Source: a virus. From it: DNA of 64,000 nucleotides. The stretch covers positions 1 through 64,000 of IMG/VR virus record IMGVR_UViG_3300012924_000001, one strand, 5' to 3'. This document shows positions 1,284 through 53,766 of this stretch, piece after piece. A program made the position numbers and the translations under genes. The notes beneath the pieces are model-generated. The model saw nothing but the letters and a program-made list of their open reading frames with translations, ran no database searches and had not been told where the DNA came from. Position 1 is the first letter of the stretch; every line of letters starts with the position of its first letter.

Positions 1284-1352
1284 GCCTGTAACGAGCCATG
1301 GTAGCGAGTCTTGTGGTGTGATGATATGTTGTATGCCTAAGTGTATGCCTAA
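1284..1352 (-). repeat. inverted copy of integrase arm-type repeat plus core-like site
   Basis: Reverse complement of 1329-1352 (TTAGGCATACACTTAGGCATACAA) matches 53743-53766 at 23/24; GCTACCATGGCT follows at nearly the same spacing as GCCACCATGGCT after the 53527 arm. Confidence 0.75.
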
Positions 1353-1615
1353 GCTCAGAGTGTTTGTCTCAGTATCAGTGTTTTATACTTACAATAATTA
1401 TGTAATGAATATAATCATCATCTTCAATCAGTAATGGATTAGTTTATGTTTGTGTAATACGTTTGCTATTGATAATCAATTGATATTGCGAATATCTTTC
1501 ACATGATCGAGACCCACCCGGTCAAAAGTTTTCGGTTCCCCTGTGGCGGCCATCGATCAGGCGCAGGGGGTTAACCCTAAGCACATAAACTGTTTCTACT
1601 ATTTTACCCATATAC

Positions 1616-1692
1616 CCTACGTCTACGACTCGGTTATGCTTTTACTCTCTCCCCATGTGTGTTCTGCGTATACCTACGTCTACGACTCGGTT
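1616..1692 (+). repeat. 20-bp direct repeat CCTACGTCTACGACTCGGTT x2
   Basis: Exact copies at 1616-1635 and 1673-1692. Confidence 0.85.
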
Positions 1693-1850
1693 CTATTCCC
1701 TGGTAGTACCCCATTTGTATTTCCGTCCCCGTACCCACTACGTTGTACCCCTATCCGGGTACTCTATCTCTAAGCGAGTACTCATGTTATACTCTCCTGG
1801 GTCTGTTTGTATATTTTGGGATATCCTTATCTTGCATATAAACTTGTTTT

Positions 1851-2162
1851 ATGGACTTATCGGATATTGAATACAGTAGGCGTGTATGGGATACGGCGGA
1901 GGAGCTTGCCAAGGTGACTAATCCTGCGTTATGGGCTACGCTGGTAACCAGTTATGGTAATGATGCCATTGCTGCGCTTTCTACGCCCTTTAATAAGACG
2001 ATGCGTAAGAAGTGGAATAACTATGTCAAGAAGATGGAGGCAGCGGCTCATTTGGCTATTAAATGGCGAATAGAGGGTATTTTAGACGGGATTTGCATGG
2101 CAAAAGATCCTGATGGGGAGGATCTGGATGATTATTTGAAAAGACGGGGTTATGTTTCTTGA
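1851..2162 (+). CDS. hypothetical protein
   Basis: ORF directly downstream of TTTG...TATCTTGC promoter. Confidence 0.75.
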   Translation: MDLSDIEYSRRVWDTAEELAKVTNPALWATLVTSYGNDAIAALSTPFNKTMRKKWNNYVKKMEAAAHLAIKWRIEGILDGICMAKDPDGEDLDDYLKRRGYVS

Positions 2163-2196
2163 TTTGCGTTATATCCCTTATCTTAGAAATAAAAAC

Positions 2197-2430
2197 ATGA
2201 GACTTACACGACCTAAAGACTTTGTTTCGGATTTGGATTTTATCAATGTATATGACAGGGATATTCATAAGTTACTGGAGGCATACGGGAAGTATGTCCG
2301 GGATTGTACGATTATATGGGCTGCTGAGAATGTAACGGCGAAGCTAGAGCATGATGAAGGTCGGTCTTTTTGCAACGTAGATATAATGACGTTGCTTGAA
2401 GGAAAAAACTCTGAGGATTTAAGGATATGA
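2197..2430 (+). CDS. hypothetical protein
   Basis: ORF track 2152..2430; start moved to ATG preceded by AAATAAAAAC. Confidence 0.65.
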   Translation: MRLTRPKDFVSDLDFINVYDRDIHKLLEAYGKYVRDCTIIWAAENVTAKLEHDEGRSFCNVDIMTLLEGKNSEDLRI

Positions 2431-2478
2431 GTTGTGTATATTTAATGCTATATCTCTTATCTTTCACATAAAAACACT

Positions 2479-2643
2479 ATGACAGCACAGACAATTATTG
2501 ATCAGGTTAAGTTCTTGTTGTTTCAGCAGACAGCACATCTTTCGCGTAAGGAGTATAGGGATTTGCTGGAAGAGGTAGGCAGTGATATAAATAATGCTTT
2601 GGAAGCGCTAGAGACAGATGAGGATGAGGAAGATCCCTATTGA
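2479..2643 (+). CDS. small acidic protein (54 aa, MTAQTIIDQVK...ETDEDEEDPY)
   Basis: Hand-translated; own promoter-like TATCTTTC and A-rich start; below ORF-track cutoff. Confidence 0.7.
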   Translation: MTAQTIIDQVKFLLFQQTAHLSRKEYRDLLEEVGSDINNALEALETDEDEEDPY

Positions 2644-2666
2644 GGATAATGACTAAAAAACCATAA

Positions 2667-2975
2667 ATGAACGATACTTTACTTTTGAAGTATGTAGGTT
2701 ACCAGATACAGCAGCGGCGTATACAAAAGGGGCTAACCCAAAGAGAGCTATGTTTGCATATCTCCTTGTCAAGGAGCGCATTAAGTAATATTGAAAAAGG
2801 CAGGCATTGGATGAACATAGAGGCGCTATGGAAGCTTACGCAGGCATTAGGCTGTAAGATAGATGATTTGTTTCCTGATGAGATGCCTGTTGAAATGATA
2901 GTGAAAGTAATAGATATCCCGGTTACTACAATCAAGAAAAAGCGTATAGTGAGCTTCAAAAGCCGTAATACATGA
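2667..2975 (+). CDS. XRE-family HTH transcriptional regulator
   Basis: RIQKGLTQRELC...SRSALSNIEKGRH...LTQALGC HTH_3 pattern. Confidence 0.85.
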   Translation: MNDTLLLKYVGYQIQQRRIQKGLTQRELCLHISLSRSALSNIEKGRHWMNIEALWKLTQALGCKIDDLFPDEMPVEMIVKVIDIPVTTIKKKRIVSFKSRNT

Positions 2976-3403
2976 GTAAAAAAGAAAGCTTTATCATAAA
3001 GCTGCATGATACATCTTACCATAAAGGTGAAGTAGTAATGACATCATGCGGTAGCGTGATGATAGTAGACAGGGAATATAATAAAGTATGGTGGCGTAGA
3101 TTGTTACTTTATATAGGAATAAAAACCAGTCGGTATAATAATATACGTCTTACAGAATATAAAAAAAATAAGCTGATGAGTAAACATTCGCAGGAAACGT
3201 ACCAGATATCAAATCTTATCAGGTTGGTAACAGTGTTACCTCACACGCTAAAAGTAGCCTCCGTGCGAGTAAGGGTAGAGGGATTGTGGACTAATGAGGA
3301 TATCCAGCAGTTAACAGAGGCTGGGTATGTAGTAGATATAACGGGGTTTGACTTTGAGACTTGTAGTGATTTTCTGGAGTTGATATTACCAAAGGCTTTG
3401 TAA
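2972..3403 (+). CDS. hypothetical protein
   Basis: ATGA-coupled to upstream ORF. Confidence 0.6.
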   Translation: MSKKESFIIKLHDTSYHKGEVVMTSCGSVMIVDREYNKVWWRRLLLYIGIKTSRYNNIRLTEYKKNKLMSKHSQETYQISNLIRLVTVLPHTLKVASVRVRVEGLWTNEDIQQLTEAGYVVDITGFDFETCSDFLELILPKAL

Positions 3404-3414
3404 ACCACTTATTT

Positions 3415-3630
3415 ATGGAAGACTATACACACAAGTGGAGTAGGGATATACTATCCTTATCTAAGCTAATATCTCCTAAGTCAGCGGAGCGTTACCGTAG
3501 AGGGATGTTGCTATCGGGAAGAGTTTGTGAGGAGTTACAGGTGTTCGGATTAACCACCGATCAACTAACTGTGATCTCTACATCTATAGAGACCACCTTT
3601 TTCGGGTTGGACTTGGATGAGTGGAAGTAA
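3415..3630 (+). CDS. hypothetical protein
   Basis: ORF in operon packing. Confidence 0.55.
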   Translation: MEDYTHKWSRDILSLSKLISPKSAERYRRGMLLSGRVCEELQVFGLTTDQLTVISTSIETTFFGLDLDEWK

Positions 3631-4034
3631 AAAATCAAACTGTTTTCATGCAAAAAATATATTTTACTGAGTATCTTTCTGTCTCTGGAAATATTTGTGA
3701 CGGTGATACTTATAGGTTTAAAGGCGTTGTGAGGTGTTGTAGGCAGGCTATTCTGCCTGTACTTGAACAGTATTATGGTAGGGAATTGTATGAGTATCAG
3801 AAAGTAGCCTTGTTCCTTTGTTATTTAGATATTGAGATAGGGAGCAGTATCACTATACCCGTAGAGTATAGGATTGATCCTGATTTATATTATACAACAG
3901 AGGGTATAGTAACAGAGATAAATCACAAAAATAATGTTGTTCATTTTGACGCACCCTGTACGGTTGGGGGTACTATACACTCAGGTGTGTATATGAGGGA
4001 TCTTCCCTTTAAGATCAGGTTTAAAGTGTGGTAA
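3621..4034 (+). CDS. hypothetical protein (start may be ATG 3648)
   Basis: ORF in operon packing. Confidence 0.55.
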   Translation: MEVKNQTVFMQKIYFTEYLSVSGNICDGDTYRFKGVVRCCRQAILPVLEQYYGRELYEYQKVALFLCYLDIEIGSSITIPVEYRIDPDLYYTTEGIVTEINHKNNVVHFDAPCTVGGTIHSGVYMRDLPFKIRFKVW

Positions 4035-4222
4035 GCGCATGCGTAATCTTCCAGTCTTTAAAAATATTGCAATAATACTAAATAGAGACGATGTAATCGG
4101 TTGATTAGTAAGTAGTTGAAAATCTACGAAATATTCGTATTGGATACTAAGAGTATACATTTTGGATAGTCAGTATAAATGAGATAACTTGGGATATCAT
4201 ATATCTAATTCACTGTTGAGTC

Positions 4223-4252
4223 CCTTCTGCTTGTTTAAGCGGGAGGTTTTTT
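4223..4252 (+). terminator. intrinsic terminator
   Basis: CCTTCTGCTT-gttt-AAGCGGGAGG followed by T6. Confidence 0.75.
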
Positions 4253-4285
4253 ATTTATATTGCAAATTTTACAGGAATATAATGG

Positions 4286-4477
4286 TTGGTACTTATGAAA
4301 AGAGAAAGAGCAATAATCGTTATGGTACTTGTTTGTATTATGAACATGGTATTACTGCGTATTGCATACCAAATAGTAGACGAGTGTCCTTTATTAGTTT
4401 ATATTATGGGAGTTTTTAGCTGGATCGTGGGTGCTGCTGTTAATATATACTGGAAAGATAGGGGAAGAAAATATTAA
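4286..4477 (+). CDS. small two-TM membrane protein
   Basis: Two hydrophobic stretches; TATATTGC promoter at 4256-4263. Confidence 0.6.
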   Translation: MVLMKRERAIIVMVLVCIMNMVLLRIAYQIVDECPLLVYIMGVFSWIVGAAVNIYWKDRGRKY

Positions 4478-4487
4478 TTTATAACAT

Positions 4488-4937
4488 ATGCATATGAGAC
4501 CTTTGTTAATTGATGAAAAAGCCAGGGCGGCTATAAAGGTGCTAAAGGAGAATGCAGAGAAAAACATTCTCACAGTTAGAGACATATTGGATATGTGGGA
4601 AGGAAGACAGTCTGTTTGGGGGGACAGGCCCGGTAATAGTATCAACCTGTTGGTGGGTTATAAAGTGGTCTTTGGTATGGAACAACAAAAAATAGGATTG
4701 TGTAGGCATCTTTCTGTATCCGTGAATAGCGGCAATAGAATACCAAGTTCTCATGCTATGGAAGTGTTGTTGAAAGAGTTTGGCTTCACAAATACACTCA
4801 AAGATTGCCTCCTAAGAATAGAACCAAATGATGCATTTTATGCTATAGAATGCGTAGATCCTGTAGCACATGAAAAAGTCCTTAACAATATGCATAGAAT
4901 AAAGCATCTTCCAAAAAACAACAGTAGCCCCAATTAA
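4488..4937 (+). CDS. hypothetical protein with RHLSVS motif (resembles 14219 protein)
   Basis: CRHLSVSVNSGNRIPS vs WEHVSVSIIPQMRCPT. Confidence 0.65.
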   Translation: MHMRPLLIDEKARAAIKVLKENAEKNILTVRDILDMWEGRQSVWGDRPGNSINLLVGYKVVFGMEQQKIGLCRHLSVSVNSGNRIPSSHAMEVLLKEFGFTNTLKDCLLRIEPNDAFYAIECVDPVAHEKVLNNMHRIKHLPKNNSSPN

Positions 4938-4963
4938 GGAAAGAGAAAGATCTATATTGCAAG

Positions 4964-5035
4964 ACTAAGCTGTATATATGGGTCTGGGGGGCATACCGAG
5001 AAGCATCCATGTCTGGGTTCGGGATATAGCTTAGT
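4964..5035 (+). ncRNA. structured RNA or 5' leader directly after promoter
   Basis: TATATTGC at 4953-4960; ACTAAGCTGTAT/ATATAGCTTAGT closing stem and ATATGGGT/ATCCATGT inner stem, both with G-U pairs on + strand. Confidence 0.55.
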
Positions 5036-5072
5036 AGGCTGATTTACTTTTATAATAAACACACATTGTCTT

Positions 5073-5264
5073 ATGGAAACAAAGATTTTTTGGTTAGATG
5101 GCCTTGAAAAAGAACAACGCAAGGGTTTTTATGGTTCTAAGGAGATCGCTCCCGCTGATTTATTGAAGGAGCTTTCTGAATTGCGTCCTGGTATTTCGCT
5201 TGCTGCAATACAGATACCTGTTGATTTAACGCAAAATAAAATAGTAATAATTGTACGTAAATAA
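5073..5264 (+). CDS. hypothetical protein
   Basis: ORF track; plausible start context. Confidence 0.6.
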   Translation: METKIFWLDGLEKEQRKGFYGSKEIAPADLLKELSELRPGISLAAIQIPVDLTQNKIVIIVRK

Positions 5265-5273
5265 CATAGGCAT

Positions 5274-5705
5274 ATGAAACAAAATATTGAAGATTACTTT
5301 AAGGTAGATCCTGCTACAAGGAGACAAATGCATATAGATAAGCTTAGGGAATCAGGGTGGTTACAAGGAGCTGAAAAAATATTTAATTCATCTACTATGG
5401 AGGAAAATAACTTTAAAGCACAACAAATGAATAAGATCCAGCCGGAAACAATTATTGCCCTGGTAAAAAACGTTGGTAGAGACATTTCCACCGAAGAGGC
5501 CATTCGCCTACTGGAAGCCATGGAGACAATGGTGGAGATAGCAGGAACCGCCCCTGTGATCACAAAACAGGTATTAGATCCCGTAGACAATGAGCGCGTG
5601 ATGAATGCCCGGAGAAATGAGACAGATGATACCCTTCTCCGTATGCAGCTTCTCCAGCTACATTACGTTGTGCAGGACTTAATTGCAGGATGGATAGTAA
5701 GCTAG
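5274..5705 (+). CDS. hypothetical protein
   Basis: ORF track; followed by hairpin at ~5745-5775. Confidence 0.7.
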   Translation: MKQNIEDYFKVDPATRRQMHIDKLRESGWLQGAEKIFNSSTMEENNFKAQQMNKIQPETIIALVKNVGRDISTEEAIRLLEAMETMVEIAGTAPVITKQVLDPVDNERVMNARRNETDDTLLRMQLLQLHYVVQDLIAGWIVS

Positions 5706-5808
5706 GAATCGGTATAATTTAATTTTACGTATAATTGTCATGATAACCCCGTGGCTAATCCTGGCCCTGGGTTTTATATAATGATCATTGTCTTTTAATA
5801 TAAATAAA

Positions 5809-6228
5809 ATGAAGCAGCTAGAAGAAATAATCAAGAGTTATAAATCACAGGCATTAGATGGCCGTGATGTATTACGGCTTACACAATTTTTAACAGAAGA
5901 GCAGATGTCTATAGTTGGGTGGGCACCTATTAACCTGGGGGAATGGGAGCGTGTACCATTTACCAAGGAGAATGTTTTGGTTCAACTTGAAAAAGATATA
6001 GCTTTTGGTTTTGAAAAGGCGCTCAATAAGCGTAGTCTATCTGCTGCGTCTATGTTTGAAACGGTTAAGATGTGGAATTGGATCTTAGAAGAAGGGTTGG
6101 AGAACTGGGAAGAAGATCAATACGCCATGTATGGTCTGCCACTTTTTAAGGCAACTGCAATAAAATATGGATTTGATAATCCTATAGGAGAAGACTCAGG
6201 CAGTGAGCTTAAATACAACGAAGAGTAG
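5809..6228 (+). CDS. hypothetical phage protein
   Basis: ORF track 5788..6228; ATG after TAAATAAA. Confidence 0.75.
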   Translation: MKQLEEIIKSYKSQALDGRDVLRLTQFLTEEQMSIVGWAPINLGEWERVPFTKENVLVQLEKDIAFGFEKALNKRSLSAASMFETVKMWNWILEEGLENWEEDQYAMYGLPLFKATAIKYGFDNPIGEDSGSELKYNEE

Positions 6229-6261
6229 TTTGAATGAGTATAATTTACTTATCTTGCGACT

Positions 6262-6326
6262 ATGTTTTTTTTTATTTAGAAAAATGAGAGATGGCACCCC
6301 CTGGCTATTTTTAGCTGGGGGTTTTT
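6262..6326 (+). ncRNA. candidate sRNA A
   Basis: TTTG(6229)-N17-TATCTTGC(6250); terminator 6296-6326. Confidence 0.6.
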
Positions 6327-6392
6327 GTCTCTGTGGTCCAGTATTAACTATCTGATTTGGATAGTATGGGTAGAGTAAGTATATTTGGAAAG

Positions 6393-6450
6393 TTATTTAA
6401 TTTATTTTATTATGTTTATGTGAAACATCCTACTTTTCCAAGTGGGGGGT
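6393..6450 (+). ncRNA. candidate sRNA B
   Basis: TTTG(6356)-N20-TATATTTG(6380); hairpin 6429-6446, weak U tract. Confidence 0.5.
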
Positions 6451-6468
6451 TGGCTTATTTTGCACTGT

Positions 6469-6525: not shown

Positions 6526-6575
6526 ATAGTTTATCCTACTTTCATTATTTTACAATAAACAATAAAGATAAATTT

Positions 6576-6836: not shown

Positions 6837-6839
6837 ATT

Positions 6840-7180: not shown

Positions 7181-7201
7181 TATGTTACAAATACAATAAC
7201 C

Positions 7202-12951: not shown

Positions 12952-13249
12952 TACCGCACTTGATGTTATTAAGAAAGAGCTTTCCCAGAATCAGGCTTTC
13001 TTCACTGCTTACGAAAGTATGATATTTTACTGTGTATATCGTGAAATTAATAAGCATGGCACATATGAAGTATTTACAGCCAATGAACAAGTTTTAAAGG
13101 ACATAATTTTGGAGGGAGCGAGAAATTTTCTGAAAGAATGGGTCGGTCTGGATGAAAGACCAATGATCTCCAGCTTAGCTGCTCTCAATGAACTCAAGCA
13201 GTCCCAGGATGAACCCTTAAAAAAAGACCTAAAGAGTAAAAAGAAGTAA
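12941..13249 (+). CDS. hypothetical protein
   Basis: ORF track; overlapping packing. Confidence 0.65.
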   Translation: MELNTALDVIKKELSQNQAFFTAYESMIFYCVYREINKHGTYEVFTANEQVLKDIILEGARNFLKEWVGLDERPMISSLAALNELKQSQDEPLKKDLKSKKK

Positions 13250-13253
13250 CACA

Positions 13254-13285
13254 GATATGGACGCTATGTTAAAACATAGCTTATG
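13254..13285 (+). repeat. 32-bp hairpin element, copy 1, abutting start codon
   Basis: GATATGGACGCTATGTTAAAACATAGCTTATG; 31/32 identical to 14665-14696. Confidence 0.85.
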
Positions 13286-13627
13286 GAAAAAGTAAAGCGG
13301 CCTGACCTCAGAGATCTTAAACCAGAGGTCGTAGCATATATTGAATGGTTAGAGAAGATTGTTGATGGTTTTAATGATAACGGCGCTGTATATCTTGTAG
13401 CTGCTCTTAACAATCAGCTTCGGGTATTAGCTGATCAGGTCCAGGTAATAGATATTGATGTTACAAAAACGGAAGATAAAGTATTTGATCGTTTTGTACA
13501 ACTGGTAAAACTTGCCAGGGATATGACAAGTGATTTTAAGTTTATGCTGAACGAGTATGGAGAGGTAATGAAGGTGAGCGATAAAGATGTGATCCCTCTC
13601 ATTGAAAGATTGGCACGTAAAAAATAA
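13283..13627 (+). CDS. helical protein, possible terminase small subunit
   Basis: Size, position upstream of TerL, and upstream element shared with TerL. Confidence 0.45.
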   Translation: MEKVKRPDLRDLKPEVVAYIEWLEKIVDGFNDNGAVYLVAALNNQLRVLADQVQVIDIDVTKTEDKVFDRFVQLVKLARDMTSDFKFMLNEYGEVMKVSDKDVIPLIERLARKK

Positions 13628-14664: not shown

Positions 14665-14696
14665 GATATGGAAGCTATGTTAAAACATAGCTTATG
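14665..14696 (+). repeat. 32-bp hairpin element, copy 2, abutting TerL start
   Basis: GATATGGAAGCTATGTTAAAACATAGCTTATG. Confidence 0.85.
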
Positions 14697-16733
14697 CAAA
14701 CAGTGCATGTATATGGAGTAGATTACAATACTCCCGCCTATCCTAAAAGAGAAACTGTCTCTAATTGTAGAGAGGTTTTGGGAGACCAAAAATGGATACG
14801 TGCTCCTATTCCCGAATCATTTGATGAAATAGAATTTGATGAGGAAGGGAATGCTATTCTTTCTCTTGAGCAGGAAGATTTTGTTGTCTCAGAACTTGAA
14901 CGAATAAATCACGGATTTTTCTTCTTTAACCGTGGAGAGTTAACCTATATTACAGGCGTTCATTATTTTTACTTACAGTACTATACTCTTGAGGACGGTA
15001 ATGCCCCTGATTACCGCGATGCAGACCGCAAATGGTTTTACTTTCTCGAACATTGTTACAGTAAGCCTTATATAAAAGGGATCATCCGCATTAAGAAGCG
15101 TAGGGAAGGTGCCAGCTCTCAAGCTGCATGTTTTCTACTATGGATGGCGCTCACTAATCCACAAAGCAACTGTGGTATTATTTCTAAGACAAGAGATGAT
15201 GCCAAGGCTGTTTTCTCAGATATGGTGGTCCGTGCCTTTAATTCGCTCCCTGCTTTCCTGCAACCCCGCGTAGAAGACTCAGAAAGTAAAAGCCAGCTTG
15301 TATTTGCAAAGCCCAAAAATAAAAAGAGAAATGTAATAAAAACTAAAGGGCAGCTGTATAATAAAGATCGTGGTTTGCAATCCAGGATCGATTATAAAGC
15401 TACGGCGCTTAATAGTTATGACTCTGGCCGTGTAACGCTGCTCATGTGTGATGAGTCTGGCAAATGGGGTGTAGAGGTGCCTATTAATCAGTATTGGCCC
15501 ATTGTGCGTAAGTGTCTTACCCAAGGTGCAAAGCGTGTAGGCTTTGCACTATTGATATCAACAGTGAATGATGCGGAGAACGGAGGTAGTGCTTACAAAG
15601 AAATATGGGATGAGTCTAACCATTTTGAAAATAAGATAACAGCTACAGGGTTATATAGATATTTTACTCCGGCTTACGAAGGCTTTGCAGGCTTTATTGA
15701 TCCTTATGGTTTTTCTATTATAGATAAAGCCACCCCATCAATGCGCAATATGTTTTCTGAGCAGTATGGTGTAGAGTATGATGGGGCTGTAGACTATTTG
15801 ATGAAGGAGCGTAAAGCGATCAAAGATCCTGTAGCGCTTTCTGAGTTGGTGCGTATGATGCCGTTCAATGAGAGAGAGGCATTTATGATCAGTCAAACAA
15901 AGTGCCACTTTTCAGTAAACAAACTTAACGAACAGATTGAGTATTTAATAGAAAATCCTCCCTACCTACGGAGAGGAAAGTTTTATCAAAAGGAAGATGG
16001 AACTGTTGATTTCCTTGATATGGAGGATGGGCCGTGGCATGTTTATAAATTTCCTACTAATGAAGAGCGCAATAGGCGCTTTATGACGGACAAGGGATGG
16101 AGTCCCGCAAATACAGCAAAGTATTGCAATGGCATTGACCCCCATCGGCATAATTTTACAAAAACTCAAAGGAGCCTTTCAAAAACTTCCGCCTGGATAG
16201 GAGAGCGCTTTGATTCTAATGATCCGGAAAATACTGGTATGCCTGTAGCATGGTACTATGACCGTCCTGCATTAAAGGCACAAATGTATGATCAAATGCT
16301 GTTTGCTGGTATTTTTTGGGGGACGCGAATGCATTTTGAAACAGATGCTGGAGATGACTACTATACTTATATCAAAAGTAAAGGGCATCTTAATTATATT
16401 CGCTGGACGCCTACTTGCGCTATTGATCCTTTAAAACCAGGACGGCGTGTTCCTGGGACCAGCTCAAGAGATCCATTTGCACTTTCTAAGCAGCTGGAGC
16501 TAGGGATTGCCTTTATTGAACATCATTGTCATAAAGTATTCTTTATTGCCTTTTTGAGGGAAGCGCTCCTTTATGAGCACGATGACAGGCAGATATATGA
16601 TACCGTTGTATCCTTTCTTATTATGCTTATTGATATGATGGGGGATACCAAGGCCAAAGTGGCAGATGAAAAGAGGGAAGTCCCAATCATAAATATATAT
16701 AATTTATTGAATGCGAACCCTCGCACTAATTAA
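14694..16733 (+). CDS. terL: terminase large subunit
   Basis: KKRREGAS Walker-A variant, LLMCDESGKW Walker B, GIDP and YDTVVS nuclease motifs; upstream of portal. Confidence 0.9.
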   Translation: MQTVHVYGVDYNTPAYPKRETVSNCREVLGDQKWIRAPIPESFDEIEFDEEGNAILSLEQEDFVVSELERINHGFFFFNRGELTYITGVHYFYLQYYTLEDGNAPDYRDADRKWFYFLEHCYSKPYIKGIIRIKKRREGASSQAACFLLWMALTNPQSNCGIISKTRDDAKAVFSDMVVRAFNSLPAFLQPRVEDSESKSQLVFAKPKNKKRNVIKTKGQLYNKDRGLQSRIDYKATALNSYDSGRVTLLMCDESGKWGVEVPINQYWPIVRKCLTQGAKRVGFALLISTVNDAENGGSAYKEIWDESNHFENKITATGLYRYFTPAYEGFAGFIDPYGFSIIDKATPSMRNMFSEQYGVEYDGAVDYLMKERKAIKDPVALSELVRMMPFNEREAFMISQTKCHFSVNKLNEQIEYLIENPPYLRRGKFYQKEDGTVDFLDMEDGPWHVYKFPTNEERNRRFMTDKGWSPANTAKYCNGIDPHRHNFTKTQRSLSKTSAWIGERFDSNDPENTGMPVAWYYDRPALKAQMYDQMLFAGIFWGTRMHFETDAGDDYYTYIKSKGHLNYIRWTPTCAIDPLKPGRRVPGTSSRDPFALSKQLELGIAFIEHHCHKVFFIAFLREALLYEHDDRQIYDTVVSFLIMLIDMMGDTKAKVADEKREVPIINIYNLLNANPRTN

Positions 16734-16788
16734 TCTATAAAATTGGTATATTTGTTTTAACTAAATTTGTTACAACAAATATTAGGAG

Positions 16789-19152
16789 ATGATTGATAAC
16801 AGGCTTATTGAGTTCCATAAAGGTACGAACAGGGACAAGGAAGACCCCCGTTTTGGGATTAAGCTGGCCCAGGCGATCAGTTCTACAGTTGATAGGGGAT
16901 ATAACGGGTATTATACGCGCCGCAATGGTAAGATCAAGATTAGCCGTGATATCGCAGCGGGGCATCAAAGCATGACCCAGTTTCTTGACTTAATGAACAT
17001 CGATGGAAAAAAAGCCTTTGTTAACCTGGACCTTAGTCCTCCCTGTATAGCCCCCAAATTTATGGATATCATGACGCAGCGTTTTATGGAGCGCAGCGAA
17101 GAGGTCAAAGTATCTGCAATTGATCCGCTATCCATGCGCAAACAGGCGCGTGAAAAAGAGGAAGCTGAATTCAGGATGGGGAACAAGGATCTAATTAATG
17201 CTATCCAGCAGGAAGCGGGTGTTCCTGTAGAAGATCCTACCGCGTATACTCCAGAAGATAAGGACGACCTTGAATTTTACTTTGGATATGAATATCAGCT
17301 TCCAGAGGAAATAAAGTTTGAGAAGGCAGTGTCGTATGTTTTAATTGATAATGATTGGTTACCCGTTTGTAAACGTAAGATCATCGAAGATATGGAGGAA
17401 ACTCCCTTCGCGGCCACACGTACCTATGTTGATGTTAATGGTAAAATAAAGATAAGAGTCTGTGAACCAGAAAATACTTTTTACTCTTGGAGTAAATTTA
17501 ATGATCTCAGGGATATAGCATGGTGTGGAGAGTTGTATAAAATGAAGGTCACAGAATACCGTGCTAGATTTGCAGAGGACTATATAAGGAAATATGGACC
17601 TGAAGAAGCTGAGAAAAAATTGTTTGAAGATGTAATGACAGCCGCGAGTCAGTTCCCTGACTATACCGCTCTTAGTTGGAACTATGATTGGTCCTTTTCT
17701 TATTACCGGCCTTATGATGATTGGGAAATTGAGGTAATGGATTTTGAGTTTAAGACCGTGGATAATGATATTTATACTACAAAAACTAATAAATACGGTA
17801 ACCTTATTGCCGTTGATAAAAGGAATAAAATTCCACAAAATTTAGGCGAAAGTAAAGAAATAGTCTCCAAGCAGGTATATAATGTATACAGGGGATATTA
17901 TGTGCGCAAACTGGATAAACTTTTTTGCTGGGGGCTGGCCAAGAACATGATCCGTCCTCAGAGCAACCTGAGTGATGTCTATTTCTCCTACAGCTTCTAT
18001 ATGCCTAAAAACCGGAACATGGATAATGTCACGCTTCCGGAAAGAATGAAGTCCTCTATAAACCAAATGACGCTCTCCCACTTGAAGATTCAGCAGCTCA
18101 TCGCCAAAATGCGTCCCGCTGGTATCCTGGTGGATATAAATGGACTACAGGATATAGACCTTGGCTTAGGCCATACCGTAACTCCCCTGGAGATGCAGGC
18201 TGTTTATGATCAAACAGGTAATGTTTACTATAGAAGTATAAAAGAGGACGGAGAGACCCGTCAAATAGTCCCTATCCAGGAACTGCCGAATGCTGGCTCA
18301 GTTGCCCAAATCCAGAACTGTATTAATATATACAACTTCTACCTGGAACGTTTGCGTCAAGACCTTGGCACTAACGAATATGTGGAGGGGCAGTCTGTCA
18401 ATCCAAAGCTCGGACTTGGTGTAATGGAAAATCAAATGGCCTCTTCTAACCGGGCAACAGCATATATATATGAAGGTTATCTTTCTCTTATGCAGAACAC
18501 CTGTAGAAAGGTGGCCATGTTGCTCTGGGACAATGTTATGTTCGGCGGTAAGGAATACAGGCATTTTATCGGTGATGAAGAGCTAGAGGATAAATATTTT
18601 GATGTAAACATTGAAATGTTGCCTGATGAGATGGAACGTGCTAAGATCGATCAGAAGGTAGAAACGGCACTTTCTGCTGGGATCATTGAGTTCCAGGATG
18701 CCTTCAAGATCAATAACATCAAGAACGTTAAACTGAAGGAGCTTTATTTGTCTCGTGCTCAGAAGCGTAACCAGCAAATGAAGATTCAGGAGAATCAGGC
18801 CAACATCAAAGCGACCTCAGACGCTCAAATTGCTTCAGCCCAGGCAACTACCCAGGGTAAACAGCAGGAGCTTCAAACTGACTATAGGGGTAAGGCTGTT
18901 ATTGCTCAGATGAATGCGGATGCTAGTTCAAAATTGGAACTACAAAAGTTCGTTCAGCAGTTACAGTTAGTATCTTTTGAAACAGGGACGCCGATCCCTG
19001 CGGACATGCAAGCTATTGTTGATGGTTTCTATGATTCAATGGCTGAACAGGAAACGCAGCAACAGGAAATGGCTGATTCTGTGATGGAAGCGGATGAACA
19101 GCAGCAGCAGCAGCAACAAATGCAACCAGGACAAGCACCACAAATGGCATAA
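16789..19152 (+). CDS. portal protein
   Basis: 787 aa after TerL; P22-like size with Q-rich coiled-coil C-terminus. Confidence 0.85.
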   Translation: MIDNRLIEFHKGTNRDKEDPRFGIKLAQAISSTVDRGYNGYYTRRNGKIKISRDIAAGHQSMTQFLDLMNIDGKKAFVNLDLSPPCIAPKFMDIMTQRFMERSEEVKVSAIDPLSMRKQAREKEEAEFRMGNKDLINAIQQEAGVPVEDPTAYTPEDKDDLEFYFGYEYQLPEEIKFEKAVSYVLIDNDWLPVCKRKIIEDMEETPFAATRTYVDVNGKIKIRVCEPENTFYSWSKFNDLRDIAWCGELYKMKVTEYRARFAEDYIRKYGPEEAEKKLFEDVMTAASQFPDYTALSWNYDWSFSYYRPYDDWEIEVMDFEFKTVDNDIYTTKTNKYGNLIAVDKRNKIPQNLGESKEIVSKQVYNVYRGYYVRKLDKLFCWGLAKNMIRPQSNLSDVYFSYSFYMPKNRNMDNVTLPERMKSSINQMTLSHLKIQQLIAKMRPAGILVDINGLQDIDLGLGHTVTPLEMQAVYDQTGNVYYRSIKEDGETRQIVPIQELPNAGSVAQIQNCINIYNFYLERLRQDLGTNEYVEGQSVNPKLGLGVMENQMASSNRATAYIYEGYLSLMQNTCRKVAMLLWDNVMFGGKEYRHFIGDEELEDKYFDVNIEMLPDEMERAKIDQKVETALSAGIIEFQDAFKINNIKNVKLKELYLSRAQKRNQQMKIQENQANIKATSDAQIASAQATTQGKQQELQTDYRGKAVIAQMNADASSKLELQKFVQQLQLVSFETGTPIPADMQAIVDGFYDSMAEQETQQQEMADSVMEADEQQQQQQQMQPGQAPQMA

Positions 19153-39191: not shown

Positions 39192-39240
39192 AACTATAGG
39201 CATTTTTTAGTACATTTGTTTCAACAAATATTCCCTCAAA

Positions 39241-39810
39241 ATGGCTGAAGCCTGGAAAGACATAGAAGGCTATGAAGGTCTATATCAGATTAGCTCCAAT
39301 GGAAGATTAAAAGCTCTTTCTAAACAAGTATTCCCCTCTACGCATCCTTGGAGAATAAGAAGTTATCCCGAAAGGATAGTTGATCTGCTGCAAAACGAGT
39401 GCGGATATAATTTTTACTATTTAAGTAAAGGTGGAACCAGTAGTAAGCGGACTATTCACCGTTTAGTTGCTAAAGCTTTTATGGCAAATCCTCTAAATAA
39501 ACCTCACGTAAACCATAAAAACGGGAATAAGATCGATAATAATATTTCTAATCTTGAATGGGCGACTCCAAAAGAAAATATGGTTCATGCAAGACGTAAT
39601 GGATTGATAAAATGTGGCGAAAATGCAGCAAATGCAAAACTGACAAATAAACAAGCTGAAGACATTAGAAATAGTGTTGAAGGGCCGCTTGCATTATCAA
39701 AAAAATATAATGTGACTCAGACTATTATAATAAATATCAGACAAAACAAAACATATATGCCGAATATATATTTTGGAGAATTGCCGGCTATTATGAGTTC
39801 AAGATATTAA
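39241..39810 (+). CDS. NUMOD4-HNH homing endonuclease
   Basis: WKDIEGYEGLYQISSNGR; VNHKNGNKIDNNISNLEW intact. Confidence 0.9.
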   Translation: MAEAWKDIEGYEGLYQISSNGRLKALSKQVFPSTHPWRIRSYPERIVDLLQNECGYNFYYLSKGGTSSKRTIHRLVAKAFMANPLNKPHVNHKNGNKIDNNISNLEWATPKENMVHARRNGLIKCGENAANAKLTNKQAEDIRNSVEGPLALSKKYNVTQTIIINIRQNKTYMPNIYFGELPAIMSSRY

Positions 39811-48347: not shown

Positions 48348-49243
48348 GTACAAAGATACAGAATGAAGGGCAACTTCAGATCACCAAACGTCATCTACGC
48401 AGCTTTAAGGAATCGTGGCGGCAACTAATAACAGAGCCTATTCCTGAGAGCGTTCACCCTCTCGTGCATCAGGCGCAGATAGATGCTATTGAATACAAGA
48501 TAAAGGATTTTGAGCAAGAGATTGATGAATATAATAGGTATCAAGAATCATTAAATAAAAAGACCTTACTTACAATTAAACCCGTACAGATGTTAAAACT
48601 TAAACCTTTAGCCGTACCCTGGAGGCCTTCTAAAGATTTTGATCGAATTACTATTAATGAAATAGGTCGAATCAATTTTTGGTCTAGCAAGATTATGAAT
48701 GAGTTTGAATTTAATGGAGTAGAATTCTTTTCGTTTGCCATGGATACAGCTGATGAGGCTTCTAATAGTTCTGCCGTATTTTTGATGCCGAATTATGATC
48801 CTGAACAAAACAGTAGAATTAATCTTAACAGGACTGATAAACAGCAACCTTATATTATCATGAAAACACCATTGGATGTGTATCGTATACATTATCCAGC
48901 TACGGTTGATTACTCTATCATAAAATACCCTATCTTTGAATGGAGTGAAGAGGAGCAGAAGGAGGTATGGGCTTATGATATACCTGTGATAAAGCTGGAT
49001 ACTTCCTTTAGGAAGGCTAATAGTATACCTCTCACTAGAGATGAAATAGTTCAGCATAAAGGGACATTAGCGGCAAGCACTGAGCCACCACCACCACCAC
49101 CTCCTCCTTCACCAGAAAGCACTAAACCAAATCTGCCCCTCCCGCCACCACCTCCTCCTAAAAGAGCAATAGCAAAGACAACCGGAAAGAGCGCACAACA
49201 AAAAGGAAAAAAAAGAGGCCCATATAAGAAAGGGAAGAGCTAA
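48344..49243 (+). CDS. mosaic protein: antitoxin-like N-terminal coil, unknown domain, poly-Pro and basic tail
   Basis: IQNEGQLQITK..HPLVHQAQIDAI..EQEIDEY; PPPPPPP; KKRGPYKK. Confidence 0.6.
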   Translation: MSTKIQNEGQLQITKRHLRSFKESWRQLITEPIPESVHPLVHQAQIDAIEYKIKDFEQEIDEYNRYQESLNKKTLLTIKPVQMLKLKPLAVPWRPSKDFDRITINEIGRINFWSSKIMNEFEFNGVEFFSFAMDTADEASNSSAVFLMPNYDPEQNSRINLNRTDKQQPYIIMKTPLDVYRIHYPATVDYSIIKYPIFEWSEEEQKEVWAYDIPVIKLDTSFRKANSIPLTRDEIVQHKGTLAASTEPPPPPPPPSPESTKPNLPLPPPPPPKRAIAKTTGKSAQQKGKKRGPYKKGKS

Positions 49244-49259
49244 TTCATTATCTTTGGAA

Positions 49260-49325
49260 TATGGGTTGTGACAGGAAACGCCCATAACAAATGATAATGC
49301 CCACTGTAACAGGTGGGCATTTTTT
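49260..49325 (+). ncRNA. candidate sRNA P
   Basis: TATCTTTG(49249); ATGGG/CCCAT hairpin; terminator AATGCCCAC/GTGGGCATT plus T run. Confidence 0.55.
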
Positions 49326-49360
49326 AGATTCAATATTCACAACTCATAATATATAAAACA

Positions 49361-49897
49361 ATGTCTCCCACTGATAATAACAAACAGATCAAGGATTACT
49401 CATTTAATAATGGGGCGATATGCCTTTCATTTAAAAATGGCGATACTGTAAGATTACCGCTCATTGATATTTTGCAATCACGCGCTGGTGCGGATGTTAT
49501 AGCAAAAACAATGGTGAATATTGAGGAGTGGGGCATTTCCATCAATATTCCTCAAATTGATATCAATGTAGATGCCATTAGATTACTTTCTGACAAAGAG
49601 GGCTACATAAAGATAAAGATTGAAGAGGCGAAAAGTGAAGCAAAAAAGGTAGGAGCGAAGATCCAGTTTATCCGTGAAGAACGAAAAATATCAAAACAGA
49701 CTGTTGCTTCCTTCATAGATAGATCATATCAACATATATCCAAAATAGAAGCGGGGAAAGCTGATTTAACGTATCAGGATCTATTACAGATTCAGGCAGT
49801 TTTGGGATATTCTGAAGAGGAGTTCCTAGCTTTTGAATTGCCTTCGAAGACAGAAGAAACATCTCTGAAAGAAGAAGACCCTGAATTAGAGAAATGA
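49361..49897 (+). CDS. DUF2442-like domain fused to XRE HTH
   Basis: LSFKNGDTVRLPL..I.IPQIDINVD; IREERKISKQTVA..ISKIEAG. Confidence 0.6.
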   Translation: MSPTDNNKQIKDYSFNNGAICLSFKNGDTVRLPLIDILQSRAGADVIAKTMVNIEEWGISINIPQIDINVDAIRLLSDKEGYIKIKIEEAKSEAKKVGAKIQFIREERKISKQTVASFIDRSYQHISKIEAGKADLTYQDLLQIQAVLGYSEEEFLAFELPSKTEETSLKEEDPELEK

Positions 49898-49997
49898 TTT
49901 TGTCTATCTATTGGCTATATACCCGCTTCGGCGGGTATTTTTTAAACACATGCATATGGTTTTCGAAAGGCGTAAATCCGAATCAACTTTCCGACTA

Positions 49998-50414
49998 TTA
50001 TTTAACAGTGACATTTTTTATCATACGCAATTCATCTTCTTCTATTACGAAGGAATCACCTATAACTCGCGATATCATATCTATCAATAATCCCCAATTT
50101 TTTCCATCACTAATAACGGAAACACCTTTCCTTACATAAGGTGGAAATATTTTATTGATATGGGTCTCTCCATTATCAAAATCAATTCTCTTTGCAAAGA
50201 AAAAGACCATATCTTCAGGTGCATTTTTTTGGAGCGGGTCTGCTATTTTAATCAATAATTCCTGTGGAGTGATATTCTCATCGATCCTTCCTTCGATTTT
50301 TATTATTTCAAATTTCCCTATTACTTTAAACTGTTCAAAAACGTCCGCAGCCTGCATCAAAGATGTCATTTTTTTATGCTTAAAAATACAAGAAGCAATT
50401 AAAGTGAACTTCAT
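49998..50414 (-). CDS. hypothetical protein
   Basis: ORF track; operon packing. Confidence 0.6.
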   Translation of the reverse strand: MKFTLIASCIFKHKKMTSLMQAADVFEQFKVIGKFEIIKIEGRIDENITPQELLIKIADPLQKNAPEDMVFFFAKRIDFDNGETHINKIFPPYVRKGVSVISDGKNWGLLIDMISRVIGDSFVIEEDELRMIKNVTVK

Positions 50415-50415
50415 A

Positions 50416-51141
50416 TTAACGTTCTTTTATTCCCGGATAAAGATCTGTTACAAAATCGGATTGCCAGTATTCATGAGTATCCACGTCCATAATGGTAAGT
50501 TTACCATCCCATCCAGCCCCTGTATCTAAGTTCCATACGCCACCAGCATATAGTGGTTTCGCCTCTTTATTATTCCCGTTGTTAACGGCAGTGTGTCCGA
50601 TAAATATTTCAGAGAAATCATCAACAGTTTTAAGCTTGTTATTTTCACCTTTAACGCTTTGTGCTTTCTCCCAAAGGGATCTGTCCCAATAGTATATGTC
50701 TTCTGGTTGTCCTATAAATTGTATTTCCCTGTTGAAGCCTCCATGTACAAAGCATCTTCTTTTGTCATCTATATAGAACAATCTTTGTTTTTTAAAGAAC
50801 ATGCGATGTGACTTAGGGAAGCAATCTGGATTACATATTCCGTTTTCTTCAGAATATGACTTTAATGTTCCTAATCCTCCCTGTCTCCAAAAATCAGGAT
50901 GAAAATATGTTTCAAAGAATGCCCTAAGCCATTCATCGTGATTACCTCTTATAGCTATAAGGTTCTCTATTTTTAAAAGCTCATCTACACATTGTCTTAC
51001 TTCTGCCCATCCATCCGCAATATCACCTAATGGAATAAGTGTATCATTTTGATAGTCAAACGCGCATCTTTCAAGACACTGCATAAGCGCTTTGTAGGCT
51101 CCATGTATATCACCTATTGCAAGTGTGCGGCCTTTCTTCAT
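50416..51141 (-). CDS. calcineurin-like metallophosphoesterase (lambda Ser/Thr phosphatase-like)
   Basis: GDIHG, LGDIADG, RGNHD, VHGG, GHT, LDTG motifs. Confidence 0.9.
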   Translation of the reverse strand: MKKGRTLAIGDIHGAYKALMQCLERCAFDYQNDTLIPLGDIADGWAEVRQCVDELLKIENLIAIRGNHDEWLRAFFETYFHPDFWRQGGLGTLKSYSEENGICNPDCFPKSHRMFFKKQRLFYIDDKRRCFVHGGFNREIQFIGQPEDIYYWDRSLWEKAQSVKGENNKLKTVDDFSEIFIGHTAVNNGNNKEAKPLYAGGVWNLDTGAGWDGKLTIMDVDTHEYWQSDFVTDLYPGIKER

Positions 51142-51145
51142 TCAT

Positions 51146-51601
51146 TTATTGTTTTAACAGTAATGTTATAGCAGAGGGATTATAGTCCCATTTGTTTAAT
51201 GGATTATAGTTCCATTCGTTTAAGATTTTTAATCTCCTTACCCATATGGGTATCGCCGGGTTAAACTGTATTTTACATATTGTCTTCCATCCGCGTGGTA
51301 TTTCAGGCACTAGATTACCAAATTGTGTGAAGCAGTATAATATTTTTACTGAAAGAGCGCAAGGGTCAGATAATAACTGCATTTTGTCTTGTTCTATTAA
51401 GGACGCAAACGAACACCCTGTTGGGATACTTTCATAGGCATAATCAATAAAGAACCATCCTTCATTATATCTTGACATAAGCGCATCCACAATATCCTCT
51501 TTATTGAGCCTTCCCCATTTAAAGTGACCAGTTGCCAATAACGCAGGGAATACATGACCTTGTAATGTTAACGGATAGTATACGGCATCTTCATTTTGCA
51601 T
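51146..51601 (-). CDS. hypothetical protein
   Basis: ORF track. Confidence 0.6.
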   Translation of the reverse strand: MQNEDAVYYPLTLQGHVFPALLATGHFKWGRLNKEDIVDALMSRYNEGWFFIDYAYESIPTGCSFASLIEQDKMQLLSDPCALSVKILYCFTQFGNLVPEIPRGWKTICKIQFNPAIPIWVRRLKILNEWNYNPLNKWDYNPSAITLLLKQ

Positions 51602-52175
51602 ATGGTAAAATCATTTGATGTAAGCGGCCTTCCTTGTGAAAGCTTGTGATGGCTCCCATAAAGGCTTCCCGGTACAAATTAAAGGCTGTGATTGCCGGAA
51701 TAGCCTCTTTATTGTTTTTAATATCGCACAGTTCTGGAGGGCTAATTACATGATAAGACCTGCAAATTATGGGGCGTGCTTCATATATGGTACACTCATT
51801 GTCTTTAAGAAAGACACAGGCCGATACATCTGAGTGTAATAGCTTGTTAATAGAAAGTTTATTCTGACGTAACAAGTGGTTTTTATCTATGGCTATATTA
51901 TGTTTTCTGCAATACTCAACAATGATTGCCACCTCCTCCGTGTAAGTTGGAATATCATGATGACAACAAAAGGAGCATCCTTTTTTGCAAGAATATTGAA
52001 CCTTTGCGTTTGTGGATACCTCTTCATTAATATAATCTACTTTTGTAATAGCCCAACGAAATGCCTGCAACTTGCCAACCATTTTAATGAGTTGACCATA
52101 TTTTATTTTCCATTCAGCATACCAGTCTAATGATTCAGGATTATTTGCTATCCAGGATAAGATTTCTTTTTTCAT
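51591..52175 (-). CDS. YkgJ-family cysteine-cluster protein
   Basis: CKKGCSFCC..CVFL..CTIYEARPIICRSY. Confidence 0.85.
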   Translation of the reverse strand: MKKEILSWIANNPESLDWYAEWKIKYGQLIKMVGKLQAFRWAITKVDYINEEVSTNAKVQYSCKKGCSFCCHHDIPTYTEEVAIIVEYCRKHNIAIDKNHLLRQNKLSINKLLHSDVSACVFLKDNECTIYEARPIICRSYHVISPPELCDIKNNKEAIPAITAFNLYREAFMGAITSFHKEGRLHQMILPYAK

Positions 52176-52199
52176 AATAATATTGGTTTAGATGAAAAA

Positions 52200-52790
52200 G
52201 AAAAGGGGAACATAGCCCACGTTGCCGGATATTGCTCTCGGGTATCTTCCGACCCTCCGGAGGTTGATTTGGCCTTACGCTTTTGGACAGCTGCCTCAGC
52301 CATGTGGACGCACCCGCTATCAGCCCTTTCGGTATGTTCCCAAGAAAATTGGCCACCGTAGTTTTTCGGCATCTTTAGCTACTAGATGTTAGAATCTATC
52401 CGTTAGGACAAGCCCTGATTTTTGCGGCCAATATAATAAAGTGAAGAACTTTTAAAGATTCCTGAGCGTGTCCCTTCGGCAGTAAGCGCCGGACATCCTG
52501 CAAACCCGCCCTGACTTCGACAGTGTGCCAGACCGGAATAAATGGTTAAGAGAAAGACTACTTCCGCGGGCCTCTCCCATATTATTCTAGCTTCCTGGTA
52601 GTAACCCCCGCCGTCCTTACATTTCAGGCTGCCATTGGGATCATTAAATAAAGTTCCCGCATGATATACAGCTCTCAGGAATCCAATAAAATAAAGATCT
52701 TAAAGAAAACCCCCTCCGCACCTCATTTCTCTCAGCGCCGAGATATCCCCCATAAAGACGGATAGCGGAAGGGGTTTAGCAGGAATTGAC
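52200..52790 (-). ncRNA. large multi-domain structured RNA (~590 nt) or tandem structured RNAs
   Basis: Minus-strand TATCTTTA promoter at ~52794-52801; four closed domains separated by U-rich linkers; G-U pairs favour minus strand; GNRA-type loops. Confidence 0.7.
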
Positions 52791-52810
52791 GTTTAAAGAT
52801 AAGAGATTAT

Positions 52811-53140
52811 TTATTTTGTACCAACCTTATTACGAAAAGTATTGTAATCAGCAGCAGAAAGAAATCCTTTTTTACATCCTCCATTTAATGTCTTTTGATA
52901 TTGTACTATTCGGGGGCTGTTTTCTGGTAAAGGAGTCAAATCCGTGCGTAATTGATCAAGAACGCGCTGAAGTATCTTAGGAGGCACTTCTCCCTCTGCC
53001 AGGGTAGCAGTAGTGCAGGTTATGTGAAAGATACAGGCCTTATTAAGAATAAACGCCTTCGCTGTGCTCAGTCCAGGAACTGAATCTATTTTTCTTGCCT
53101 TTACGTGGATACCATCTACAGAAAAATTTGAATTACGCAT
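52811..53140 (-). CDS. hypothetical protein
   Basis: ORF track. Confidence 0.55.
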   Translation of the reverse strand: MRNSNFSVDGIHVKARKIDSVPGLSTAKAFILNKACIFHITCTTATLAEGEVPPKILQRVLDQLRTDLTPLPENSPRIVQYQKTLNGGCKKGFLSAADYNTFRNKVGTK

Positions 53141-53159
53141 AGTGATTGGGTTTAGTGAT

Positions 53160-53453
53160 TTAGTGCTTTAAAAGGTCAACCATATTGATTATTTCGGCTA
53201 ACCCATATTGAAAGAAAAGAAAGTCTTTATAGGGATTGGCCATTAGGGTGAAACGGACTTTTTTATCTGTCAATTCTTTTGCTATTGCTGCTTGTTCGGG
53301 AACTAAGTAAGTATATCTTTGGTTTTTCTCGGTGCCCCAAAGGATACAGGCCATTCCAGATGCCTTACATATTATTACCTTTCCTTCGAGTACTTGAGCG
53401 TAGTATTTGGAGGGTTTAGGAGACCGCAATTGGGAATCGGTATCTTGAGGCAT
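53160..53453 (-). CDS. hypothetical protein
   Basis: ORF track. Confidence 0.55.
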   Translation of the reverse strand: MPQDTDSQLRSPKPSKYYAQVLEGKVIICKASGMACILWGTEKNQRYTYLVPEQAAIAKELTDKKVRFTLMANPYKDFLFFQYGLAEIINMVDLLKH

Positions 53454-53526
53454 TTTGCGCTTTTTCCGTAATTTAATAATATTATATTATAAAATAGGTT
53501 TTTTGGAGTGAAAAATTATGAATACC

Positions 53527-53766
53527 TTGGGCATACAATTAGGCATACAGAAAAACATCGTTTTGAAGATAGGCCACCATGGCTGTCAGGCAAGAAAGTA
53601 GCTAAAATTCCACGTTATGCACAATACTTCCACTCAGTTCCACGTTATCTGCTAAAAATGGCCACAATAAAGGGTTATATGGGAATGGGACAAAAAATAA
53701 AGTGCTGCAAAATGTATTATAATTGAAAGAAAAGAGTTAGTTTTAGGCATACAATTAGGCATACAA
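53527..53766. mobile_element. attP-like region
   Basis: Tandem GGCATACA arm-type pairs at 53527-53550 and 53743-53766 directly upstream of the integrase; TTCCAC repeats at 53608, 53628, 53638. Confidence 0.75.

Follow-up and report, generated by a model that had tools for sequence, protein, structure and literature searches.

Locus and features

The window analysed here is a stretch of 64,000 bp, corresponding to bases 1-64000 of the virus record IMGVR_UViG_3300012924_000001 in IMG/VR, whose 78,334 bp carry a 93-bp terminal overlap and represent a circular genome of about 78.2 kb. Two regions of this genome are considered. The phage attachment site (attP) lies at 53.5-53.8 kb, just upstream of int, the gene coding for a tyrosine integrase (Int). 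The second region, at 1254-1406, is an inverted element (hereafter site A) located within a 975-bp intergenic region (876-1850) between a leftward small-gene array and a rightward array leading into the virion genes. Because the genome is circular, site A and attP are separated by 52 kb one way and by 26 kb the other way. As judged by alignment, site A is a paralogue of the P arm and of the left edge of the core of attP, and might have been retained as a regulatory site.

Relatives compared included L083 (contig WUUC01201117.1), a syntenic relative with protein identities of 35-80%, the complete 56.9-kb genome G001, and prophages of Chitinophaga varians and Chitinophaga sp. Hz27. The features of the two regions are as follows.

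919-926, minus strand: candidate Bacteroidota -7 box (TACCTTTG) of the leftward operon, located 44 bp upstream of its ATG (875)
1254-1406, minus strand: site A, inverted diverged paralogue of the P arm and core left edge (blastn and alignment with four P arms)
1254-1264, minus strand: 11-mer TTATGCACAAT, common to the attP core region, reading on the plus strand as the near-palindrome ATTGTGCATAAT
1294-1312, minus strand: CCATGG box of site A (AAGACTCGCTACCATGGCT), presumed accessory-factor site, also present in the P arms of this phage and of L083
1329-1352, minus strand: tandem pair of site A (TTAGGCATACAC TTAGGCATACAA), presumed integrase arm-type sites
1445-1465, plus strand: two candidate -7 boxes (TATGTTTG, TACGTTTG) of the rightward operon, 93-106 bp past the 12-mer pair
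53471-53625, plus strand: P arm and left part of the core of attP, homologous to site A
53527-53550, plus strand: tandem pair of the P arm (TTGGGCATACAA TTAGGCATACAG)
53566-53584, plus strand: CCATGG box of the P arm (AAGATAGGCCACCATGGCT), matched at 16/18 positions by the L083 box (AGATAAGCCACTATGGCT)
53601-53616, plus strand: GCTAAAATTCCACGTT, left end of the core, including ATTCCACG and invariant in four attP or att sites of the integrase family
53743-53766, plus strand: tandem pair of the P' arm, ending 17 bp upstream of the int start codon
53783-55189, plus strand: tyrosine integrase, 468 aa, with a predicted N-terminal domain of beta-sheet and helix
55143-55418, minus strand: candidate recombination directionality factor (RDF), 91 aa, Xis-like winged helix-turn-helix, convergent with int

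Tandem 12-mer pairs

The 12-mer TTAGGCATACAA was found six times in the window with at most one mismatch, at 1329 and 1341 on the minus strand and at 53527, 53539, 53743 and 53755 on the plus strand, against 0.63 occurrences expected from shuffled sequences, none of which (0/100) reached six. The remaining 14 kb of the genome held no additional copy at the same threshold. All six genomic copies fell into three tandem pairs (1329-1352, inverted; 53527-53550; 53743-53766) and shared an identical octamer, GGCATACA. An earlier note on this DNA had reported that the arm repeat recurs inverted at 1329-1352, and the pattern count and shuffles confirmed it, with 23/24 positions matching the P' pair.

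An exact search of IMG/VR for the 12-mer pair returned a single match, L005 (IMGVR_UViG_3300026531_000053), and chance matches swamped the output of a degenerate scan of the same database for the tandem motif. L005 was rejected as a relative carrying the same site: it is a Mu-like transposable phage, and the likeness of its repeat was taken as chance. At 12990-13260, beside a CI/S24 repressor gene, L005 displayed two adjoining modules of about 110 bp, one with three to four copies of TGTAAACCTAA and the other with four TGTATGCCTAA-type repeats each followed by TGATTTTTGCGGTAAC, which are probably repressor or transposase sites.

Architecture of attP

The region upstream of int in relatives was composed of a GACATA-type tandem pair, an interior of about 56 bp, GCTAAAATTCCACGTT, and a second pair directly next to the int start codon. 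Measured from start to start, the P and P' pairs were 216 bp apart here and 215-216 bp apart in G001 and L083 (three genomes), and the distance from the P pair to CTAAA was exactly 56 bp in four sites. The prophage of C. varians is a 50.3-kb element delimited by a 43-bp direct repeat that begins with CTAAAATTCCACG; host DNA is found outside, and one tandem pair lies on the phage side just inside each of the attL and attR junctions; GCTAAAATTCCACGTT falls within this direct repeat. Since pairs are found inside both junctions of the attL/attR repeat, the core sits between the two pairs, and the pair at 53527-53550 is therefore that of the P arm and the one at 53743-53766 that of the P' arm. The assignment of 53.5-53.8 kb as attP in the earlier note is thus solid, resting on the layout of four relatives with the same integrase family and on attL and attR of the C. 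varians prophage. For this integrase family of Chitinophagaceae phages, which has been little studied, these results define how attP is built: its two tandem 12-mer pairs are separated by 216 bp, the core follows the P pair after 56 bp, and the core starts with GCTAAAATTCCACGTT.

Several smaller observations concern the core and its targets. In the core region of this attP (53608-53649), TTCCACGTTAT was present twice (53608 and 53638) with TTCCACTCAG in between, and the relatives had no such internal duplication. At a C. varians locus (L076, G002:C23:1092319-1095338), the attB-like word AAATTCCACGTTATGA occurred twice within 250 bp of host intergenic DNA, and a hairpin preceded both occurrences; the target of the integrase family may be a repeated element between host genes and not a unique site. 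In Chitinophaga sp. Hz27 (L074, G003:C7:476864-479883), a P arm (TTAGACATACAATTAGACATAA) was found with a core identical to that of C. varians, and no integrase of this family was found on that contig (contig 7). By its sequence, this locus would be either the far end of a prophage divided across contigs or an orphan half site.

Integrase and Xis-like protein

By its sequence Int is an intact tyrosine recombinase, the residues R271, K299, H400, R403, H427 and Y436 being invariant among 13 homologues, and its structural model matched Tn1549 Int, XerH, Cre and lambda Int in Foldseek (E = 1e-5 to 1e-7). The closest homologues included P0002 (67% identity) and P0004-P0006, while a single-protein integrase search in IMG/VR found nothing. 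The model predicted three N-terminal strands (6-10, 13-19, 29-37) and a helix (44-66), followed by a disordered linker (87-108). This additional domain is predicted to resemble that of arm-binding integrases, and PF17293 was present in more distant Int homologues.

The convergent 91-aa gene was co-inherited with int in all five relatives with sequence available downstream of int. Its product had no match in Pfam, PHROG or NCBIfam. Fold matches to Pukovnik Xis, RdfS, Tn916 Xis, BldC and TorI were weak (E = 0.4-1.2), and the best was to pSK1 Par (E = 0.02). Both genes (53783-55418) and attP moved as a cassette among phages otherwise sharing little or nothing: beyond it, L084 shared no other gene, and G001, the C. 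varians prophage and L086 shared one to three early or tail genes.

Anatomy of site A

Blastn aligned 1254-1406 with 53471-53625 at 108 of 162 positions, with E = 5e-9 in the local search and about 1e-5 once we rescaled it to the whole genome compared with itself. That the distant inverted element is a second copy of part of attP, as proposed in the earlier note, was borne out by this alignment, and the homology (about 150 bp) was longer than the segment described there. A second shared segment claimed at the same time is also real, AAGACTCGCTACCATGGCT (1294-1312, reverse complement) matching AAGATAGGCCACCATGGCT (53566-53584) with the 1-bp difference in spacing that had been reported (16 nt in site A, 15 nt in attP), but its partner is the copy at 53527, in the P arm, and not the one at 53743.

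When aligned with four P arms, site A displayed in order the 12-mer pair, the 16-nt spacer, AAGACTCGCTACCATGGCT, CTAAA, TCGATGA and TTATGCACAAT, and continued into unrelated DNA. The TTATGCACAAT block was identical (11/11) at 1254-1264 and 53615-53625, with no other exact copy in the genome. TCGATGA stood in place of ATTCCACG, a part of the core that does not vary among four att sites of the family, and site A had no P' arm. Because the P' arm is absent, ATTCCACG is replaced and only the P arm and left core edge were copied, site A is, from its anatomy, a paralogue of this part of attP and not a second attP.

Beyond the core-like end of site A, 876-1253 had no match among the loci compared. 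A palindrome, TGACATAGACTGTCA, abuts this end at 1240-1254; it was unique in the genome and could be an operator.

The candidate -7 boxes are located 93 bp (rightward) and 328 bp (leftward) from site A. In three of four relatives, a leftward gene starts 20-125 bp from the true P arm, which faces it; site A, owing to its inverted orientation, is turned towards the rightward operon in the same manner. Between the rightward boxes and the first rightward gene, a pyrimidine-rich, ORF-poor leader (1500-1850) without match among the loci compared contained a direct repeat, ATACC(C)TACGTCTACGACTCGGTT, with copies near 1611 and 1670. RNA folding of the leader (1470-1850) was no better than that of shuffled sequences (z = -0.04), and among the sequencing runs no RNA run was listed as containing the phage.

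Conservation pattern and possible function of site A

Conservation between site A and the P arm was distributed in blocks, encompassing the 12-mers (21-23/24), the core of the CCATGG box (11/12) and the 11-mer (11/11), while the 15-16-nt spacer was near random (about 6/15). Genome-wide, the three motif blocks were found only at site A and the P arm, the 12-mer pair being also present at P'. Such block-wise conservation resembles a footprint. Over the whole interior, site A matched its own P arm at 37/56 positions, and this P arm matched that of L083, whose integrase is only 48% identical to Int, at 42/56. The 12-mers of site A nevertheless carried the private variant of this phage, GGCATACA, where L083 and all the other relatives use GACATA. 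Since the private variant was kept despite an interior divergence exceeding that of L083, the 12-mers appear to have tracked the specificity of this integrase, and we read them as having stayed matched to their putative binding protein in this phage.

RNA structure was rejected as the cause of the blocks: no match was obtained in Rfam, and no conserved RNA structure was found in the P-arm alignment (RNAalifold, -2.8 kcal/mol). A decayed gene copy beside site A was rejected as well, as six-frame comparison of 880-1850 with the genome gave no similarity other than the match between site A and attP. With neither RNA structure nor an adjoining gene remnant to account for the blocks, we infer that a DNA site assembling the same proteins as the P arm would be the simplest reading.

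The explanation we favour, although its probability falls somewhat short of even, is that site A is a retained P-arm paralogue serving as a second docking site for the recombination proteins and regulating nearby genes. Regulation by Int at the 0.9-1.8 kb control region was among the readings offered in the earlier note, and it is the one to which the evidence leans. The N-terminal domain of Int would bind the tandem 12-mers (the Xis-like factor being an alternative binder), and the Xis-like factor, a host bending protein or both would bind the CCATGG box. The resulting nucleoprotein complex could modulate the neighbouring promoters, by activation or repression. We lean to the rightward promoter as the preferred target, because site A is turned towards it as the P arm is towards a leftward gene start in three of the four relatives. 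Regulation of this kind would link gene expression to the state of integration or excision.

Several points weigh against such a function. The arm-to-core spacing of site A is 57 bp, whereas four functional sites all have exactly 56 bp. An identical picture would have resulted from a donor phage of the same specificity, and the block pattern could arise if site A were the functional P arm of another phage, now inert. The -7 motif occurred at chance frequency (48 and 35 times genome-wide, for about 39 expected per strand). Finally, a third pair was seen in this genome only. G001 contained exactly two pairs, its two lone inverted matches being non-tandem and inside genes, and the C. varians prophage exactly two over the whole 55-kb region scanned; on contig 6 of Chitinophaga sp. 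Hz27, pattern matches (at most one mismatch) were found at the int side of the prophage and 45.9 kb downstream, with none between. These three elements say little on the control region, since they have only int and the small convergent gene in common with this phage.

If site A is functional, the recombination proteins would double as transcription regulators in an uncultivated soil phage of Bacteroidota, a principle known from the P2 and 186 coliphages and from CTnDOT being realized by duplicating a whole attP arm into the main divergent control region. The system would be experimentally tractable, as it comprises only a single integrase, a single factor of 91 aa and three short blocks of motifs.

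An inert relic as alternative

A fairly unlikely alternative is that site A is a functionless leftover of a past rearrangement or module exchange. The integration cassette might have been duplicated long ago, for instance, or recombination might have taken place with attR of a related prophage whose integrase had the same arm specificity. The mobility of the int-Xis-attP cassette among phages like G001, the C. varians prophage, L084 and L086 is consistent with such an origin, as is the half-site anatomy, which is that of an attR (P arm and part of the core, then unrelated DNA). The loss of the invariant core stretch and the 57-bp spacing point in the same direction, and the locus on contig 7 of the Hz27 draft genome is another P arm and core without a family integrase found on the contig, although the integrase is possibly on another contig. 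Moreover, functional P arms that diverged under selection (own attP and L083) display the same blocks, so that blocks alone are no proof of function at site A. However, the 12-mers are at consensus (23/24) beside near-random spacers, when an old relic should have drifted throughout and a recent one should have kept its spacers. The 12-mers also carry the private GGCATACA and not the GACATA of the family, and as 876-1253 matched none of the loci compared, no donor was identified. If site A is a relic, it would be a minor footnote on the mobility of the integration cassette.

Orientation of the segment between the two sites

Among the readings offered in the earlier note were a genome inversion switch driven by the integrase, possibly with Flp-like amplification, and an alternative attachment site. 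Under this explanation, site A would be a substrate of Int, its partner being attP when the genome is free and attL when it is a prophage, and 26 or 52 kb would be inverted, as a switch or as Flp-like amplification; alternatively, site A would be used for attachment.

For four runs of soil metagenomes (X1-X4), Logan contigs were compared with positions 1-5000 of the window. X1 (about 31x), possibly the source sample, contained one 76-kb contig collinear through both sites. Contigs of X2 (1120-1617) and X3 (1195-1346), from independent studies, bridged site A in the reference orientation, while X4 gave only unrelated short matches. The contigs of X1, X2 and X3 displayed no loose ends or joints at site A, and the reference orientation was the only one in the contigs of the three studies. 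Two isomers in comparable amounts, the outcome expected of a freely flipping or Flp-like system, are thereby excluded; a rare isomer is compatible with these contigs, which drop minor variants.

The inverted orientation, the common 12-mers and the 11/11 identity of TTATGCACAAT inside the attP core region would suit a recombination site, and weak core sites can be reached by arm-bound integrases, IntDOT tolerating heterology in the overlap (PMC2817482). Site A nevertheless shares only CTAAA and the 11-mer with the att core, short of equivalence in core-type and overlap sequences, and has no recognizable inverted core-type sites; none of the relatives examined for it (G001, the C. varians prophage and the prophage on contig 6 of Hz27) has such a site. 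Given the single orientation in the contigs, the missing core element and the missing P' arm, recombination at site A is quite improbable. A complete second site able to drive inversion is not supported, given the copying of the P arm and left core edge alone, the lack of a P' arm, the replacement of ATTCCACG with TCGATGA, the 57-bp spacing and the orientation of the contigs. Still less probable is the particular scheme in which Int and the Xis-like factor pair attL with site A in place of attR (attP with site A in the free genome) and invert a 26-kb segment with the int, early and immunity genes; if true, a rare integrase-driven large inversion would lock or reset the prophage. Use of site A as an alternative attachment site is unlikely on the same grounds, namely the absent P' arm, the absent ATTCCACG, the spacing and the single orientation.

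Comparison with known systems

The closest parallels to regulation from site A are found in the Apl protein of phage 186 and the Cox protein of P2. Apl binds at att and also between pR and pL, and Apl/Cox repeats, direct repeats about one helical turn apart, occur at att and in the early promoter region, where they couple excision to the transcription switch (PMC7498355). As in those phages, the same motifs here are present at att and at a putative promoter region, site A lying in 876-1850. The present case differs in that a whole P-arm paralogue (presumed Int 12-mers, box and core-edge block) is involved and not just RDF boxes, that the host belongs to Bacteroidota, and that the candidate factor, an unrelated protein of 91 aa, matches the Xis-like fold only weakly.

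CTnDOT is likewise an element of Bacteroidota, with an integrase of the same broad type carrying an N-terminal arm-binding domain. Its excision proteins (Xis2c, Xis2d and Exc) bind upstream of the tra and mob operons and activate them, the sites used by Xis2c and Xis2d for tra lying upstream of the promoter of that operon, and IntDOT is a putative negative regulator (PMC3809561). Unlike the present phage, CTnDOT is a conjugative transposon, and the text consulted describes no P-arm paralogue at the tra promoter.

In KplE1, IntS and TorI repress intS through the att sites (autoregulation through attL), arm-type and RDF sites overlapping the int promoter (PMC2951348). Since only 17 bp separate the P' pair from the int start codon in the present phage, autoregulation of int by the same logic is probable by analogy. 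The regulatory sites of KplE1 are the att site itself, whereas site A is an extra copy 26 kb away.

Inverted repeats related to a recombinase site on one molecule, as found here, are also known from invertible segments driven by tyrosine recombinases, such as the fim switch, the R64 shufflon with Rci, Bacteroides invertons and, in the 2-micron plasmid, Flp/FRT. In those cases both core sites are complete, their overlaps match and the two orientations are present side by side, whereas here one partner is without the conserved core and one orientation was seen. The principle of recombination proteins acting at promoters is already established for Apl, Xis2c/Xis2d and IntS/TorI; no description of a whole att arm copied into the control region of a Bacteroidota phage was found in the papers searched.

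Gene map, host and other repeats

The genes of the circular genome were arranged in the following blocks.

About 78.1 kb through the origin to 875, leftward: small-gene array
1851-50529, rightward: block of small genes, XRE-type regulator, large terminase, portal and tail genes
2667-2975: XRE-type regulator, in the rightward block
14694-16733: large terminase, in the rightward block
16789-19152: portal, in the rightward block
50416-53453, leftward: short block
55143-62428, leftward: early block, including the replication initiator
63202-63705: CI-like repressor, opposite a small leftward gene

Gene annotation thus agreed with the module layout given in the earlier note, in which virion and accessory genes lie between the two sites and int and the replication genes lie outside. 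The host probably belongs to Chitinophagaceae, because the int homologues come from Chitinophaga and other Chitinophagaceae. The portal protein was 25-27% identical to those of Flavobacterium and Maribacter phages. No GenBank phage matched the DNA of the site A or attP regions, and an IMG/VR search with neighbouring genes returned unrelated phages only. Among 401 sampled Chitinophagaceae genomes, neither a related prophage (searched by portal) nor attB (searched by core pattern) was found.

A second contig of run X1 (8.7 kb, depth 25) matched 100 bp of the window (94-194) with 12 differences before diverging, and a related phage seems, from this match, to co-occur in the soil sample. Between the leftward genes adjoining the P arm, 630 bp (52175-52810) were without credible ORFs.

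Two further repeats were located at gene starts. One is a direct repeat of 40 nt that includes the hairpin AGCTATGTTAAAACATAGCT and whose copies, at 13254-13293 and 14665-14704, are 93% identical. The first copy overlaps the start codon of the gene at 13283 and the second that of the large terminase (14694); the repeat may be a common translational or transcriptional operator. A 29-nt element (86% identical) was repeated at 16755-16783 and 39204-39232, just upstream of the portal gene and of the gene at 39241. The first copy reads TAAATTTG, a Bacteroidota -7 box, and the second, TACATTTG, fits the same box, so that by their sequence and position these elements look like copies of a late promoter.

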